From positions 1 to 42,115 of the IMG/VR virus record IMGVR_UViG_3300032136_000009: 42,115 nt of DNA, one strand, 5' to 3'. The position numbers were made by a program, and so were the translations under genes. This DNA comes from a virus (Duplodnaviria > Caudoviricetes). A model generated the notes under the pieces. That model saw only the letters and a program-made list of their open reading frames with translations, did no database searches and had not been told where the DNA came from. Below are positions 14,654 to 33,565 of this stretch, piece by piece. Within the stretch, counting starts at the first letter, position 1; each line of letters begins with the position of its first letter.

Positions 14654-15145
14654 CTACTCCTTAAACAGAGGAATCCCAACTTCAACGCTCCTCGTTCCGT
14701 CCAACAGTAACCTAACGAGCACATGGGTCGCCTCCTCGGCGTCCTCCACATCCTCATAGCCCTTGGGCCCAAAGCATACCTCTTCAAACTTTAGCCCCTC
14801 TGCTTTGCACAGCTCAGCCTCCACCCCTTCCACACTCCGATGCACCGCACCCCCTTCCCACCAATAACAAACCTCCCCCACTTCAGGCGCACCAACCTCA
14901 TCAAGGTTAGCGCGCAAGGTTAGGCTCTGCGTGTAGATTATGGCGCTGTCCTTAATGCTGTTGCCCAAGTCTTTCTCCAACAGATTGAACACCAGCCTAG
15001 CGTTCGCGTTCTGTCTGATTCGGGTTTTAGTATGCTCATGGGTTTCCATTGCACGCACGAGGATCATCAACCCAATCCCCATAATCAGAATGCAAATCGC
15101 AGCGGCCATCATCAGTTCCACAATCGTAAATCCTTTCGTCCGCAT
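14654..15145 (-). CDS. Type IV prepilin/pseudopilin-like protein (N-terminal cleavage/methylation motif)
   Basis: SD GGAGG then MRTKG|FTIVELMMAAAICILIMGIGLMIL (G-1, F+1, E+5, hydrophobic helix), followed by NARLVFNLLEKDL, like PilW/GspJ-type proteins. Confidence 0.85.
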   Translation of the reverse strand: MRTKGFTIVELMMAAAICILIMGIGLMILVRAMETHEHTKTRIRQNANARLVFNLLEKDLGNSIKDSAIIYTQSLTLRANLDEVGAPEVGEVCYWWEGGAVHRSVEGVEAELCKAEGLKFEEVCFGPKGYEDVEDAEEATHVLVRLLLDGTRSVEVGIPLFKE

Positions 15146-15174
15146 GGTCCTACCCTCCGAAACTGGAAAGAGGT

Positions 15175-15435
15175 TTAGTACGGCTCCCAGTTCAGTTCCT
15201 TCAGCTTGACCCATTTCAAGCTGCCCGTTCCACCCACCTGTGCAAGTCCGACGAAGTCCCGTTTGATCTCGCGGACTTGCGCGTGCTCAAAGGCTCCGGG
15301 TTGGTTCTTAAAGCGCCAGAGGATGTAACTTTCTTTATCGGGTACACCCCGGACCACAGCCCTCAGCGCAGCGACGTCGTTCTCAATCTCCGCTTGAGAG
15401 CGCATTGGTTGCGGTTTGGTATTTAAGCTCTCCAT
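15175..15435 (-). CDS. Hypothetical protein
   Basis: SD AAGGAGG. Confidence 0.65.
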   Translation of the reverse strand: MESLNTKPQPMRSQAEIENDVAALRAVVRGVPDKESYILWRFKNQPGAFEHAQVREIKRDFVGLAQVGGTGSLKWVKLKELNWEPY

Positions 15436-19356: not shown

Positions 19357-20889
19357 TCACACCTTCAAGAAAGGTATCTCGATACTCTTGTCTCGGCTCT
19401 TCGGGGGTCGGTACTCGTAGAGCACGTTACCATCCTTATCCCGTCCAACTGGCCAGAGTGCGCCTTCAAAGTATTGTAACGGACCTCTCGGCCCACTGAC
19501 ATCATTCCACGTTGTACGGAGCTTGTCTGCCCATGTGGTGTGAGTCCGTCGGTACACGTTCCGTGGACCGCTAATACACACCATCTGGTCTAACAGCACA
19601 TCCTCAGCCCAAAGCGGCACACCATCTACCGCACTAATGGTCCGGTCTTTGAGCTTACGCTCGTACATCTTCCTGGCGCGGACAAGTGCGTTTGTCGCGT
19701 TGTTCCGTTGCCAACCACCGAACATTGGATCGTTAGGCAGGATGCCGCAACAGCATCCGCTATCGTTGAGCTCTTTGAAGTGCGGATCACTAATGCCGAA
19801 GGTCCAGCCGAGCTTCTTGCACTCCTCGTAGATAGCGAGCGTAAGGTCTTCCTTCCATGCTCGACTGCTCCGCAGGCACTCACCCTTAATGCTGGTGGTG
19901 TCTTCATAGTGCTCGACAATCGGTATGCCACTACACTTCTCAATCTCTTTCCACATCCCTGCAATATGCGCAGGTCGACTCCCCGGAACAAACGCAAACT
20001 CCATGCTAATAGCCTGAGCACCCGCATCGGCCGCAGCACGGATAAGGTCCCTCCATGCCTTAGGGTGCTTACGCGTGCTATCAGACACACCCGGAAGAAT
20101 AGGACGGAAACGCAAACTCGCCTTACACCCCATGCGCGTAAGAGCACGCATAGCCGCGAGGCGTTCCTTAGGGGTCGGAGCGTCTTTGTCCACCTTGCTG
20201 AGGACCGAGCCGTCAATGCTAATCGTGCTGAACGCGAACCAATACAGCTCCGGCTTGACCCCGATGGCCTTGAGGTAACGCGGGTCCTGCAACAGAACCC
20301 CACCTTTGGTACTCACCCGAACAGGCTGATCGTACTTGTTGAAGATAGGCAACGCCTGCAACGCCCACCCCTGATGCCGCTCGATGTTGTCGAAGGGGTC
20401 TCCCAGCGCGCCGAACTGGATAGGGCAACGGTTGGGGGCCTTCTCACCACCGACCTCCAGTAGCGCACGATGCATGCGACCGGTCCAACCGTTCGGGTCA
20501 CACTTACCGCTGACCAAGCGTTCCACCTCAGCAAGACTCGTCTGCCCTACGGCATAGGCGCTCTCTGTGCCATGCGCGTAGGCTTCTCGCCTGCACGGAT
20601 CACGCATGAGGTAGTTACTGAAGCAGTACATGCACCGAAAGCTACACGTACTATGACTGTCCATTGCAACCGGCAAGGCACAGTCAAAGCCGTCCGCCGT
20701 GTAGCGGATGCCGCTGTAGTCCCGGAGCTTCCCTTTAAACGGCTTACAGAAGCTCCGCTTGTCACACTTCAGCGTGCAGTTACCACACCCTTCACTCTTC
20801 CCAACGCGCTCTCTCCAACCGTTACTGAGCATGTCCACGGTCTTGGCCTTGACTGCACGATTCTTCTTTCTCTTGGCTACTCGCGGCAT
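19357..20889 (-). CDS. Radical SAM protein (spore-photoproduct-lyase-like clade)
   Basis: CSFRCMYC (CxxxCxxC), GALGDPF, VSTKG, DAPTPKERL, RFRPILPGV; extra Cys clusters CGNCTLKC and GCCCG. Confidence 0.85.
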   Translation of the reverse strand: MPRVAKRKKNRAVKAKTVDMLSNGWRERVGKSEGCGNCTLKCDKRSFCKPFKGKLRDYSGIRYTADGFDCALPVAMDSHSTCSFRCMYCFSNYLMRDPCRREAYAHGTESAYAVGQTSLAEVERLVSGKCDPNGWTGRMHRALLEVGGEKAPNRCPIQFGALGDPFDNIERHQGWALQALPIFNKYDQPVRVSTKGGVLLQDPRYLKAIGVKPELYWFAFSTISIDGSVLSKVDKDAPTPKERLAAMRALTRMGCKASLRFRPILPGVSDSTRKHPKAWRDLIRAAADAGAQAISMEFAFVPGSRPAHIAGMWKEIEKCSGIPIVEHYEDTTSIKGECLRSSRAWKEDLTLAIYEECKKLGWTFGISDPHFKELNDSGCCCGILPNDPMFGGWQRNNATNALVRARKMYERKLKDRTISAVDGVPLWAEDVLLDQMVCISGPRNVYRRTHTTWADKLRTTWNDVSGPRGPLQYFEGALWPVGRDKDGNVLYEYRPPKSRDKSIEIPFLKV

Positions 20890-29096: not shown

Positions 29097-29313
29097 CGTT
29101 AAGATCTCCCGGAGGGTTATGACTCGCTTGCTCCTCGTAGAGCTGTTCTAGCATGCCTGCCGCCTTCCAAAGCTCATGACACCGAGGACAGTAGAATGGA
29201 CCCTTATCGCAAATCTGCATATGGCAGATTAGAGCTTTGAGGTGTGAGGAACGCTTTTCTAGCGCCTCGACTCGGTTGTTGTAGTCCGATAGTATTTCGT
29301 TAACGCTATCCAT
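29089..29313 (-). CDS. Hypothetical small Cys/His protein
   Basis: MDSVNE...CHMQIC...CPRCH; overlaps the UDG stop. Confidence 0.55.
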   Translation of the reverse strand: MDSVNEILSDYNNRVEALEKRSSHLKALICHMQICDKGPFYCPRCHELWKAAGMLEQLYEEQASHNPPGDLNDE

Positions 29314-29848
29314 GTGATCTCTTCCTTGCCGCAATCTTGAACACCGTAGCCAACCCACGAACGAACGTTCTGTACGCGCTACTCGTTGTTCCTCCGCACC
29401 GCAGCACAAACGCCGGATGTACCAAGCTCACTGCATTAGGCCAAGCTCGTTTGCAATGCTTCTCGGCAACCTTACCTAAGAAGACTACGAAGTCAGGCTG
29501 CACCCTATCATACGTGAACTTGAGTCTCGGCCAACAGGCTAATGCTTCCTCAGCTGTTGGTTCGCGGTTTGGGCCTGCATGAGCATCGCAAGGACGGCAC
29601 GCTACTACGTTCGTTATGTAGTAGCTTGGTGCGCTTGCGCCGCTCATGCGTTCTGCGTCCTGTATTCCACGCTGGAGAAGCTTGCCGTTAGGACCGACGA
29701 AGGCTTCGCCGAGGATGTCTTCGGTCTTCCCCGGAGCTTCGCCAATGAAGAGGACTTCGGCAGGCCATTGGCCGCGTCCGGGTACACGCTTGGTCCGCGT
29801 GCTCTTAAGGTCGCAGCCCTTACACCGGAAACCCTTGAGGATGTGCAT
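29306..29848 (-). CDS. Uracil-DNA glycosylase, family 4 (Fe-S type)
   Basis: CKGC, FIGEAPG, AFVG, NVVACRP, NREP, LVHPA. Confidence 0.9.
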   Translation of the reverse strand: MHILKGFRCKGCDLKSTRTKRVPGRGQWPAEVLFIGEAPGKTEDILGEAFVGPNGKLLQRGIQDAERMSGASAPSYYITNVVACRPCDAHAGPNREPTAEEALACWPRLKFTYDRVQPDFVVFLGKVAEKHCKRAWPNAVSLVHPAFVLRCGGTTSSAYRTFVRGLATVFKIAARKRSHG

Positions 29849-29868
29849 GCTACTCCTAGGAGAAAATT

Positions 29869-29974
29869 GGGGTGCGTGCTACCATTACACTAAAGCCTAT
29901 CCAGTAGCTTGCTGGATTTATTAGGGCGCTACCCATGCGGCCTCCGGGAATCGAACCCAGTCTACACCCACCCC
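29869..29974 (-). ncRNA. Circularly permuted tRNA-like element (3' half precedes 5' half)
   Basis: GGGTG-TAGA-CTGGG TTCGATT CCCGG-AGGCC (29969-29939); linker with two hairpins; then GGCTT-TA-GTGT AATGGTA GCAC-G-CACCC(C) (29897-29869). Confidence 0.7.
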
Positions 29975-30466
29975 TTACAACAGACCCTGTGCAGCAAGCC
30001 CCATGCCCACTGCATCTGAAACATGATCCGGGTACGTCTGTCCCCATGTGCGTCGAATGCGTTGATCCACCACGCGTTTAGGGAGCTGCCCCTTCCACTC
30101 GTTAGGGCTGACGAGTCGCGGGAGTACACCCGTAGTCTGCTCATAACTGACTAACATGTACATCCCGCATAACGCGTAAAGCTTCCCAAGGTCCCCACGC
30201 TCCACGCATGCATGGCTCTTGGCGCTCTGGAACTGTTCGGGGTACTCTATCACAACTTCATTCGGCTGCCATATCGACAAAGACTCAGCGAACCACAGTG
30301 CTAGCCGGAACTGCCGTTCTCGCCAGTCTCCGCGCCCACCTGCACGCTGACGCACGGCATCGGGCGGTCCGTCGAGCTTACGAAAGAAGGCAAGGCCCGT
30401 CCCGCCCAGTCCGGGATCAACGAAGACGACGTTGGTGTGGAGACCTACCATCCAATCCTTATTCAT
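29975..30466 (-). CDS. RuvC-like Holliday junction resolvase
   Basis: FVDPGLGGTG, VIEYP, SPNEWK, DHVSDAVGMG. Confidence 0.8.
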   Translation of the reverse strand: MNKDWMVGLHTNVVFVDPGLGGTGLAFFRKLDGPPDAVRQRAGGRGDWRERQFRLALWFAESLSIWQPNEVVIEYPEQFQSAKSHACVERGDLGKLYALCGMYMLVSYEQTTGVLPRLVSPNEWKGQLPKRVVDQRIRRTWGQTYPDHVSDAVGMGLAAQGLL

Positions 30467-30942
30467 AGCCGCGTCCCCTCTCCACTTGGTTCACCGATGT
30501 AGCACCAATTCATCTCTTCTTCTACAGTCGTCCCGCGTTCTAACGCGCGGAAGATGGCGTCGTGCTGTTCGCGTAAGCCTATGTCAACTGGCTTGCGTGG
30601 AATTGGAACTAAGCAGCCCGACAGGAAGAGGAGCACGACTAAGACTGCAAAACTGGAACCCGTCGGAGGAGTCGAACCTCCTTGCCCCGTCCGTGGACAG
30701 TGGGTGCGTACGACGCACTGAACATCGACTGGCGGACTAACCTTTGGCCTCCTCGGATTAGCGTACTTGGCGTCCCAAGACTCTTTGCAACCGAGGCGCT
30801 CTCCCTGAGCTATGCGGGTACTGGAGTGGCCTTCGGGAATCGAACCCGAACCTCGCCGTGGTGGCTTCCCCTTACAGGAAAGGTGCACCCTTCTTGACAG
30901 GGGGCGTGCTACCATTACACCAAAGCCACTCTTCTTCATCAA
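30463..30942 (-). CDS. Small lipoprotein gene whose signal peptide is interrupted in frame by two tRNA-like units
   Basis: Lipobox LSGC after FAVLVVLLF; MKKS lies 276 nt upstream in the same frame; GGAG SD upstream; TGA overlaps the RuvC ATG. Confidence 0.55.
   Translation of the reverse strand: MMKKSGFGVMVARPLSRRVHLSCKGKPPRRGSGSIPEGHSSTRIAQGERLGCKESWDAKYANPRRPKVSPPVDVQCVVRTHCPRTGQGGSTPPTGSSFAVLVVLLFLSGCLVPIPRKPVDIGLREQHDAIFRALERGTTVEEEMNWCYIGEPSGEGTRL
30654..30819 (-). tRNA. Atypical 166-nt tRNA-like RNA (34-nt anticodon-loop region beginning TTGCAA, 69-nt variable region, encoded CCA)
   Basis: D arm TA-GCTC AGGGA GAGC; anticodon stem CCTCGG/CCGAGG; T arm GGAGG TTCGACT CCTCC; acceptor ACCCG/CGGGT (only 5 bp), then T-CCA. 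Confidence 0.7.
30822..30929 (-). tRNA. Atypical 108-nt tRNA-like RNA (hairpin inserted in anticodon loop, long variable arm, encoded CCA)
   Basis: Acceptor GTGGCTT/AGGCCAC + T-CCA; D arm GTGT AATGGTA GCAC; CCCC/GGGG stem enclosing CTGTCAA-GAAGGGTGCACCTTTC-CTGTAA; T arm TCGGG TTCGATT CCCGA. Confidence 0.75.
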
Positions 30943-30943
30943 T

Positions 30944-32302
30944 TTAACGTCTCCGCCTTGCGTTGAACTGTTGCCGGAGGATGGCGTCCATGGTTCCTGT
31001 GCTGCCTAAGGACTTCATCCTCAGCCCTTTGCTAATGTCTTCATCTATTGTGCCTTTGGTAATCATCTCGATGACCGTTAGCTCACGTTCCAGCTTGCTG
31101 AGATGCACGTTCCGGTCTTCCGTTTGGGTGCGCATCAGGTTTCCGAGTGGGTTGCTGTAGTAGATGCTCACATCCGCCCTGCTCAGTCGCATACCCATCT
31201 CGCCTACTGCGTGCTGAATGACCAGCGTGTCCAGCTTACCTTTATTGAACTGGTCCACGGCTTTCATCCGTAGAACCTTCTCCACCTTGCCTGTGAGCCT
31301 CTGCACGCGTCGACCTGCTTGTGCAAGTCTGCGGGTGATGTGATCTATCTCCAGCAAGAAACCCGCCCACACCACGACAGCATCTCCGTGGTATTCACCG
31401 TCGAGCAGGTGAACGAGGTCGTTGACCTTATCCTCGCAGACGAGTTCTTTGTCGAACCATCCTCCTGCTAGTCGGCGCATCCACGTATAGCGCGTTCCTG
31501 CCCAAACGGTCGTATCTAGCACACTACCGTTGAGCTGGAGTTCAAAATCATGCTCCATCTTGCGGTAAGCCTTCTTCAGATCCGCAGGGAGCTCAAAGCT
31601 CCGCGTAACGTAATGCTTGGTCGGCTCGAGGTTCCAGTCCTTCCGGCGCATCACACATGCCCGACCCGCAACGTACTTCTCCACGCGCTTACGCGTTCCG
31701 GGTAACGGGCACCACTTGTTATCCACAACCGTAAAGAGCTTCTTCCTACAAACCCACCAATCGGTGAACCCAAAAGCAAACCCATCGCAGAAGGCAAGCT
31801 GCGGCCAGAACTCTAAAAGGTGTTCGGGGTTTGGCGTACCGGTCATTACCCACCGATGCCGTACGTGGTCTAGTCTGTTCAACCAGAACCGTGCTCGTCG
31901 GGTGCGGAAGTTCTTAATGCAGGTGCTCTCGTCGATACACACACAGTCCCAGTCTACATGATCTTGACGTGCTATCTCAGGGATGTGTAAGTGGATGTCA
32001 GGGTGTGCAATGTTCCATTTCCGCGCGGCTCCCAGCTGGAGAAGACGTTCTGTTCGTGTGCCGTCGAGCGTCTGCCAGCTTGGCTCACCTTCTAGTTCAA
32101 GCTCTTCGATCCAGCTGCCATGCGCGCTCGTCGGTGCAATGATGAGGACGCGCAACTCTTCGGCTCGTGGTTTGTAGGCTTTGGCCCTGCGGATGAACAC
32201 GGTACTCTTCCCCATCCGTGGATCCACGAACAGAACCGGATGCTGCGTTTCGTAAGCGTAACGGAGCATCTGTTGCTGATGAGGCCAGAGTTGGCGTGCC
32301 AT
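30944..32302 (-). CDS. SNF2-like (SF2) helicase
   Basis: LWPHQ, DPRMGKS, CIDESTCIKN, MTGTP, GEMGMRL, QTEDR. Confidence 0.9.
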   Translation of the reverse strand: MARQLWPHQQQMLRYAYETQHPVLFVDPRMGKSTVFIRRAKAYKPRAEELRVLIIAPTSAHGSWIEELELEGEPSWQTLDGTRTERLLQLGAARKWNIAHPDIHLHIPEIARQDHVDWDCVCIDESTCIKNFRTRRARFWLNRLDHVRHRWVMTGTPNPEHLLEFWPQLAFCDGFAFGFTDWWVCRKKLFTVVDNKWCPLPGTRKRVEKYVAGRACVMRRKDWNLEPTKHYVTRSFELPADLKKAYRKMEHDFELQLNGSVLDTTVWAGTRYTWMRRLAGGWFDKELVCEDKVNDLVHLLDGEYHGDAVVVWAGFLLEIDHITRRLAQAGRRVQRLTGKVEKVLRMKAVDQFNKGKLDTLVIQHAVGEMGMRLSRADVSIYYSNPLGNLMRTQTEDRNVHLSKLERELTVIEMITKGTIDEDISKGLRMKSLGSTGTMDAILRQQFNARRRR

Positions 32303-32417
32303 GTCTCACTCCTAATAACGAGCTGCTCTGAGGAAGGGTGCGGGAAAGTGCGTAATCTACCCTTGCATGCCCCCAGAGCGAGCTCGCTGCCGCTGCACTT
32401 GCAGTCGGCTTCCACTT

Positions 32418-32457
32418 AAAAAGAAACCCCCCGAGCGGGAGTGAGTCGCTCGGGGGG
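32418..32457 (-). terminator. Rho-independent terminator
   Basis: Minus strand CCCCCCGAGCG-loop-CGCTCGGGGGG followed by TTTCTTTTT; a second hairpin (32467-32492) precedes it. Confidence 0.85.
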
Positions 32458-32512
32458 CTTTGCGGTCCGAACAGGCTGGGCAGACTGTTCGGTCCGGGGA
32501 TGCAGGGAAGGG

Positions 32513-33565
32513 TTAGCTAGCCTTGCTCACCTTACGGACGACACGGCGAGGTGCAGCCTTCGCTTGGGGGGTCTGCCCCTTGGCACCAGTAGGAGCTGGG
32601 GGCGTCTTTGCCTTGCGGGTCGCCTGCTTGGGCGTTTTACCCTTTTTGGGAGCCTGTTTCGGCTTGCTTGCCCCCTTCTGGGCTTTCACCTTTTTGCGAC
32701 TCTTTTTCTCCTTTTTGGGGCCGTCCCCCATCGCCACAACCTTCAGCTCCGGTCCCTTGTACTGGATGCCCCCATCCGGCGTCAAGGTGAACATCTCGGG
32801 ATGCATACCGAGCGTCCTGCGCCAGTAGTTCTTTCCTGGGACGTTGTCCTTCATCCACGCCTTGAGTTCCTTAACGCTCTTCCCCTTCTTGACGAGGCCG
32901 ACGATTTTCGCCATCACCTCATAGCGACGGGTCCCGAGCTTGAACCGCACCTTACTGTCGGGGTCGATGGGGTTCTTGCTTCCGGGAAGTACCGTAAAGG
33001 TAGTCTTCGCTGCCTTCAGGGTCTTCGCCTTGTTACTTTTCGGCTCCTTCTTCTTGCTGGCCATGGTAATGATGACCTCCTGATCTGGCTGTGCCCGACG
33101 ATCCGCTTCACGGCACTCTGCCGTAGCTGGATTGGGCGAGGTTAAGTGGGCGTGAACGCACTTGTCATTACAGAAGATGCCGTAGCCGTAGTCGACGGCG
33201 TTTGGGCCGACCTTCTTCTTGCACTTGTCATGAGTGCATCGTGCCCCTCTCTTGACCTTGCGTACAGGCATGGTCACTTCCTCCAACGCTCGTGCCCTTC
33301 GCTCCAAGAAGGGGGGAGAGAAGCTGTAGAGTAGCCCCTCAGCTTCTCTGGACCCCCTCAATTGGAGTTCGTAAGCAGTCGCACGTTCAATCTGGTCCAT
33401 GCGCCCACTCAACTTGCATCCTGAGAACACAACCTGAACGACCGAACGGACGAACCTCCCCCGCGTATCCTCATCCATCCGTGCACACGTATTCAGGAAC
33501 CAGAGAGCCTTCTCTCTGGGACTGATAGCTGGACGATCGAGAATTGCAAGTGCGCCTTCCGGCAT
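32513..33565 (-). CDS. Multi-start ORF: N-terminal helical domain + Cys/His Zn-like domain + Lys-rich histone-like C-terminal unit (starts 33565, 33271, 33064)
   Basis: Three in-frame ATGs, each after a strong SD (AAGGAG, GGAGG, CAGGAGG); the C-terminal 183 aa are very Lys/Ala/Pro-rich. Confidence 0.7.
   Translation of the reverse strand: MPEGALAILDRPAISPREKALWFLNTCARMDEDTRGRFVRSVVQVVFSGCKLSGRMDQIERATAYELQLRGSREAEGLLYSFSPPFLERRARALEEVTMPVRKVKRGARCTHDKCKKKVGPNAVDYGYGIFCNDKCVHAHLTSPNPATAECREADRRAQPDQEVIITMASKKKEPKSNKAKTLKAAKTTFTVLPGSKNPIDPDSKVRFKLGTRRYEVMAKIVGLVKKGKSVKELKAWMKDNVPGKNYWRRTLGMHPEMFTLTPDGGIQYKGPELKVVAMGDGPKKEKKSRKKVKAQKGASKPKQAPKKGKTPKQATRKAKTPPAPTGAKGQTPQAKAAPRRVVRKVSKAS

Follow-up and report, generated by a model that had tools for sequence, protein, structure and literature searches.

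The window analysed here, a stretch of 42,115 nt, is an IMG/VR virus record that is 51% complete and belongs to an uncultured phage; the record is found in a sediment metagenome run. Profile matches in the window include a lambda-type terminase and portal, a Mu-like capsid protein, DNA polymerase A and a primase, together with Sak4, an exonuclease, a uracil-DNA glycosylase (UDG) and the SNF2 and UvrD helicases, and this gene set suggests a bacterial host. The host was also sought via a related provirus, whose ends carried phage genes and identified no host. Two further minus-strand ORFs gave weak matches, one of 510 aa at 19357-20889 to the PA0069-family radical SAM proteins (E 1e-15, below the cut-off) and one of 186 aa at 14654-15214 to pseudopilin-like proteins at its N-terminus.

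A small gene that contains two tRNA-shaped units is placed on the minus strand between the gene of an SNF2-type helicase (30944..32302; PF00176, PF00271 and phrog_62, with relatives of similar length) and that of a RuvC-like resolvase (29975..30466), which has 1390 relatives whose profile matches RuvC structures weakly (best E 0.013). The UDG gene (29306..29848, minus strand; PF03167) lies further downstream. No promoter-like site was found in 29700-32600. One Logan contig, which may come from the source sample, spans the region without any difference from the window, and the arrangement is unlikely to have arisen through misassembly.

A small lipoprotein-type gene in an accessory slot

Four nt separate the helicase stop codon from the ATG of the small gene (30939-30937), and an SD-like GGAG (30951..30954, minus strand) lies within the helicase 3' end, 11 nt ahead of this ATG and 8 nt ahead of a TTG at the alternative start position 30942. 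The start codon and two Lys codons (30930..30939) begin an n-region, and beyond the units lie a hydrophobic h-region and the lipobox L-S-G-C (30613..30651), the sole such match in the three minus-strand frames of the window. The mature part consists of the 49 codons after the Cys and a stop (30463..30612) that overlaps the ATG of the RuvC-like gene. The 62 codons downstream of the insert score 0.14 bits/codon on the phage's own codon model, inside the range of 616 true-gene windows and above all 79 of 79 stop-free off-frame windows; the insert itself scores -0.21 bits/codon and is hence not coding-like. Given the coding-like downstream codons, the unique lipobox match and the M-K-K type start nearby, the locus is a genuine small lipoprotein-type gene with RNA genes interrupting it. 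The first-pass annotation had read the locus in the same way, and that part of its reading stands; the intron excision with re-ligation and the bypass that it offered as options are not supported.

If the protein instead began inside or after the second unit, for example at the GTG at 30636, the upstream ATG would be incidental, and in-frame GTG codons are indeed present both in the insert and in the h-region. However, the GTG at 30636 has no SD and leaves 7 residues ahead of the Cys, whereas the upstream ATG has one, closely follows the helicase stop and is succeeded by two Lys, and such a start (an ATG no more than 5 codons away, with at least 2 K/R behind it) occurs by chance at 165 of 42,072 positions. 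An internal start is therefore decidedly improbable.

Relatives of the small protein, in which the first-pass annotation proposed to look for uninterrupted alleles, were not recovered: database searches with the 62-aa part and with the 158-aa ORF, which are insensitive for short proteins, each returned only the query itself. There was no family match in Pfam, PHROGs or NCBIfam, which are likewise insensitive at such a short length, and the best score in the ESM Atlas was 0.82, under its lead threshold. Contigs of two DNA runs included neither a joined nor an empty allele, which is not evidence of absence.

Close relatives of the phage are known as proteins (55-61% identity in the helicase and 53-54% in the resolvase). 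A search for their DNA found none in the viral scans, this contig only in the metagenome scan and two chance matches in the genome scan, and GenBank phages reach about 25% identity. The comparison set is therefore made up of 79 distant loci with 24-44% identity in the RuvC-like gene. The helicase precedes the RuvC-like gene in 51 of the 79, with the match ends less than 200 nt apart in 26 of these, and the frequency of this order and of such short distances marks the whole cassette as accessory. Unrelated small ORFs occupy the slots of the 32 loci that were read. Three slots (L025, L034 and L068) show a small-lipoprotein look, while three other flags seemed spurious. L025 carries an uninterrupted 70-aa ORF of similar build in the same slot, but it has no detectable homology (E 1.2) and a non-standard lipobox, with an Asn at -2 that falls outside the lipoprotein pattern; its value is limited to showing that a gene of this kind can occupy the slot. 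A T-arm motif on the gene strand was found in neither slot of the 79 distant loci. Between helicase and resolvase, relaxed ARAGORN called intron-type tRNAs in L045 and L059, RF00005 matched nothing in those two records, and it detected tRNAs in 6 of the 50 records searched.

The two tRNA-shaped units and a permuted paralogue

The ATG, both units, the GT between them and the two CCA ends were re-read from the sequence and lie where they had been annotated. Unit 1 (30822..30929, minus strand; 108 nt) has a 7-bp acceptor stem, U73, CCA, a long variable arm and a hairpin insert in the anticodon loop at about 30892-30874. It matches the Rfam tRNA model RF00005 with 41.9 bits (E 1.1e-5), and relaxed ARAGORN calls it Leu(CAA) with a 19-nt intron; without the insert it scores 119.1, with other anticodons within 3 points. 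After the GT spacer (30820..30821) follows unit 2 (30654..30819, minus strand; 166 nt), which has a short D loop, a 6-bp anticodon stem, a T arm, U73 and CCA, as well as a hairpin insert at about 30786-30760 and a variable region of 69 nt (30750-30682). Unit 2 has no Rfam match at E<=1 and passes an ARAGORN score of 100 only when the anticodon insert and most of the 69-nt variable region are removed (123-126). Both units fold as cloverleafs of unremarkable stability (z -1.85 and -0.70). The tRNA-likeness claimed for them is borne out by their folds and by the Rfam match of unit 1, but neither is detected by standard ARAGORN and unit 2 is not recognized by Rfam.

A GT after the CCA, which had been singled out as notable, is a common trailer of phage tRNAs (28 of the 359 tRNA genes in the fetched loci), and GTTTT follows in 12 of the 359. 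Because these bases recur there, those behind unit 2 may be a tRNA trailer as well, and the ancestral junction is then not fixed. Spacers of at most 2 nt separate 12 of 211 tRNA pairs.

A third element was absent from the first-pass annotation. It lies about 700 nt downstream of the units (29869-29974, minus strand), between the RuvC-like stop and the UDG start and directly ahead of the UDG gene. Its 3' half is written first (29936..29974: anticodon-stem strand, T arm and acceptor strand, no CCA) and its 5' half second (29869..29899: acceptor strand, D arm and anticodon-stem strand), and the two anticodon-stem strands pair over 6 bp, that of the 5' half with 29974-29969. The element is thus opened at the anticodon loop, with a 5-bp acceptor stem and two hairpins in the linker. 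It is identical to unit 1 at 26 of 28 nt in the 5' half and at 19 of 20 nt over the T arm, and when un-permuted it scores 112.0 in ARAGORN, compared with at most 95.2 at 100 random places. Judged by this sequence comparison, element 3 is a circularly permuted paralogue of unit 1. A T arm, a closed acceptor stem and a D arm follow one another in permuted order, which we take to be the order in YrlA RNAs as well. Rfam gave no YrlA match for the element, and no Ro60 gene was detected in the window, including the rescanned ORFs, of this 51%-complete record.

All three elements are without a normal anticodon loop and keep the elbow and acceptor side. As encoded, units 1 and 2 offer no 7-nt anticodon loop for decoding. 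With no normal loop in any of the three, the most likely role of the units and of their permuted paralogue is that of a tRNA mimic or a processing signal and not of a decoder. A tmRNA, including the two-piece forms, was considered and rejected: there was no Rfam match and no call by standard ARAGORN, and G3-U70 is missing from all three elements, each of which has a D stem.

RNAs of tRNA shape with enlarged anticodon regions are common as stand-alone phage genes, with 90 distinct ones in 120 loci found by one D-arm pattern. The middle parts of units 1 and 2 gave 0 nhmmer matches in the 232 fetched loci, and seven loci that matched a D-arm pattern used in the search for homologues of unit 2 were rejected, none being homologous by eye. 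Several other arrangements were also seen. One family of tRNA-shaped RNAs in phage tRNA arrays carries a rod-like anticodon-arm insert ending in a conserved ACAGCA motif (L004-L007, L009, L011, L013, L116, L124, L126, L129, L133, L134 and others). In a second tRNA-shaped family, mostly without CCA, a conserved internal-loop module replaces the anticodon loop (L114, L115, L117, L118, L122, L148, L152, L169, L190, L196, L203 and L215). Phage cloverleafs in 13 loci appear, by eye, to have two tandem anticodon hairpins with UCA-like and CCA loops (opal and Trp readings) (L123, L125, L128, L139, L142, L160, L170, L180, L188, L205, L217, L222 and L226). Tandem tRNA-shaped elements that share the short D loop of unit 2 and have inserts of about 90 nt occur around 1194-1340 in L237, L239, L240 and L241, and a related phage has two atypical tandem tRNA-like genes, one of them 110 nt long (L100; G025:C1:55754-55962).

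Reading the open frame

The two units and their spacer make up a 276-nt block that is in frame and stop-free between M-K-K-S and the hydrophobic segment, with 0 stops in the frame of the gene and 3 in each of the others. With the block, the ORF has 158 aa from the ATG and its lipobox Cys is residue 109; without it, the joined form has 66 aa and the Cys is residue 17. Each of the three junctions carries an in-frame AGT. The stop-free 276-nt block, the 66-aa joined form and the AGT junctions, like the SD and the overlapping stop, had been annotated before and were all found in the sequence. Shuffles of the insert are stop-free in frame in 278 of 5000 cases, and together with the 1-in-3 condition on length this amounts to about 2% by chance, a coincidence figure that is post hoc. 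Translation through the insert needs a length that is a multiple of three and no stop, whereas splicing or hopping needs neither; hence the open frame counts for read-through.

In our estimate there is about an even chance that the two nested tRNA-like genes are translated as a lengthened leader and that tRNA-processing enzymes cleave the message. Besides the open frame and the coding-like downstream codons, the accessory nature of the slot, a second nested tRNA gene in another phage (L110) and the frequency of tRNA-shaped RNAs with enlarged anticodon regions among phages speak for this reading. Ribosomes would then pass straight through both units and add a basic N-terminal extension of 96 residues (18 K/R, 5 D/E), and signal peptidase II would discard this leader, provided that the lipobox is still used. 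The pair may have come as a piece of a tRNA array and may have been retained because the protein can dispose of its n-region and because no stop or frameshift arose, so that ribosomes could also continue from the helicase gene into the resolvase gene. The cloverleafs would be excised by RNase P and a 3' nuclease of the host, the remaining message would lack a start, and release of the RNAs and synthesis of the protein would be mutually exclusive on one transcript. In this respect the switch mentioned in the first-pass annotation, in which tRNA-processing enzymes cut the mRNA, is a possible one. The acceptor stem 10 nt behind the ATG probably holds expression low. The AGT at all three junctions is not explained by read-through, and may stem from microhomology at insertion.

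The signal peptide itself is less easily accommodated. An h-region followed by a lipobox Cys is present, but a short basic n-region with the Cys near residue 15-35 is seen in the joined forms and not in the read-through form, whose last K/R is residue 83 and which falls outside the standard lipoprotein pattern (taken from a published survey, with one character class supplemented). Since Cys109 lies so far from the usual positions, the protein may stay in the membrane without being processed, or the gene may no longer be functional. For comparison, the mean position of the lipoprotein Cys is 21.4 in one genome of the survey (PMC13068155). Moreover, no homologue was found that shows conservation of the frame, which also counts against read-through.

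A dead or dying gene, in which a recent insertion of the tRNA-like pair inactivated a dispensable accessory gene and the frame is open by chance, would agree with the variable content of the accessory slot, with the misfit of the read-through form to the lipoprotein pattern, with a structure of -104.8 kcal/mol that starts 10 nt behind the ATG and with the missing homologues. It nevertheless requires the coincidence of about 2%, and no damage is seen in the start, the h-region, the lipobox, the codon use or the overlapping stop, so that we regard this explanation as unlikely, though deserving serious weight.

The misfit of the extended leader could also suggest that the units are removed from the message as an intron punctuated by tRNAs, with RNase P cutting at 30929, a 3' nuclease cutting after the CCA at 30654 and a ligase rejoining the ends to encode a 66-aa preprolipoprotein. 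The cut sites coincide with the cloverleaf ends, the joined form has a normal type II signal, and only joined forms fit the lipoprotein pattern. However, the exactness of the join, which had been put forward as special, is not so, since a lipoprotein signal likewise results from 355 of the 476 in-frame deletions around the junctions. Nor does splicing account for the open frame. No bulge-helix-bulge yields the 276-nt cut. One strict bulge-helix-bulge cutting after the CCA of unit 2 would remove 272 nt and shift the frame, and it is one of 20 matches at chance level; allowing one mismatch at most, none is seen at the canonical anticodon position, as an EndA-type intron would have it. RNase P leaves 3'-OH and 5'-P ends, which RtcB is not known to join. 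Neither the 49 ORFs scanned nor the 21 rescanned in the 51%-complete record include an RNA ligase, and the literature searches gave no precedent. Removal and re-ligation, as first proposed, is hence unsupported and appears improbable to us, and we hold the same view of a variant in which such splicing is the rule, read-through is a fallback only and the permuted paralogue is a second processing cassette of the same operon.

The matched in-frame AGT codons at the three junctions would, on the other hand, suit a translational bypass with take-off at the AGT of codon 4 and landing on the AGT behind unit 1 or unit 2. Yet the codon after the take-off site is GGC (2.1% of codons, rank 19), the nascent peptide is just 4 aa long, and the gap of 276 nt with 60% GC contains 10 further AGT/AGC triplets. 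T4-type bypass uses a stop codon or a rare one behind the take-off site, contacts made by the nascent peptide and an AU-rich gap, and the hop covers 50 nt (10.1101/2022.08.31.505936). The T4 gene 60 cassettes and the yeast mitochondrial byps described there resemble the present insert in being bounded by matched codons, but here there is no stop or rare codon and no nascent-peptide signal, and the gap is GC-rich, 276 nt long and open in frame. With these signals absent, the bypass offered in the first-pass annotation finds no support and is very improbable.

Comparison with nested and tRNA-like genes elsewhere

Nested tRNA genes are already in print for selBC, and the placement in a phage signal peptide comes from a single genome here. 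In the literature search, which left most subscription papers outside, neither tRNA-like genes in a phage signal peptide nor permuted phage tRNA genes were found. With this locus, the small and itself predicted group of protein genes that contain a tRNA gene would gain a phage member, and the nesting would affect just that portion of a secreted protein which is removed in any case. What phage tRNA mimics do becomes a question here, as a replication operon carries three tRNA-shaped RNAs that are paralogous or adjacent and have no normal anticodon loop, and one of the three is permuted. Rejoining, if true, would mean that bacterial mRNA can be spliced in a novel way, and the cassette of 480 nt is small enough for a direct test of read-through, processing switch or splicing.

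An independent second case of nesting was found in a phage that shares the RuvC-like gene (L110), where a 74-nt tRNA-Gln(CUG) forms part of the open reading frame of a 720-aa portal gene and falls in the linker that connects PF04860 with PF04233 (portal/Mu-F). This tRNA (G010:C1:23714-23784, minus strand; ORF L110:689-2851, minus strand) has a CCA, and 11 nt of its 3' end are repeated directly behind it.

Enlargement of a tRNA by an insert in the anticodon region, with no known splicing route, is shared by the units and the tRNAs of Lak megaphages (10.1101/356790). In the portion of that report available, the Lak tRNAs are near-identical across cohorts and are not described within protein genes, whereas the inserts here are unmatched in 232 loci and unit 2 adds a variable region of 69 nt. 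Element 3 resembles in its topology the YrlA Y RNAs of bacteria and phages, whose tRNA-like domain likewise mimics a D arm, a T arm and a loop-closed acceptor stem (PMC4201824). One YrlA is cut by RNase P, and a 7-bp acceptor stem is needed for this cleavage (same source); element 3 differs in its acceptor stem of 5 bp instead of 7 bp, in having no match to the family model and in the lack of a detected Ro60.

The closest parallel to the nesting is selC, the tRNA-Sec gene nested in the selB ORF of Alphaproteobacteria, with a usual length of 96 or 93 nt (Mukai 2021, PMC8124441). Our locus differs from selBC in having two tandem units with anticodon-arm inserts in a phage, placed at the N-terminus in a signal peptide, and in having no functional tie to the gene around them; only for selBC has conservation been demonstrated. 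In both cases, however, a complete tRNA gene, here a tRNA-shaped one, lies on the same strand inside an open frame, its length is mostly a multiple of three, the stop of the ORF overlaps the next start, and processing is predicted to repress translation, as in the model proposed for selC in selB.
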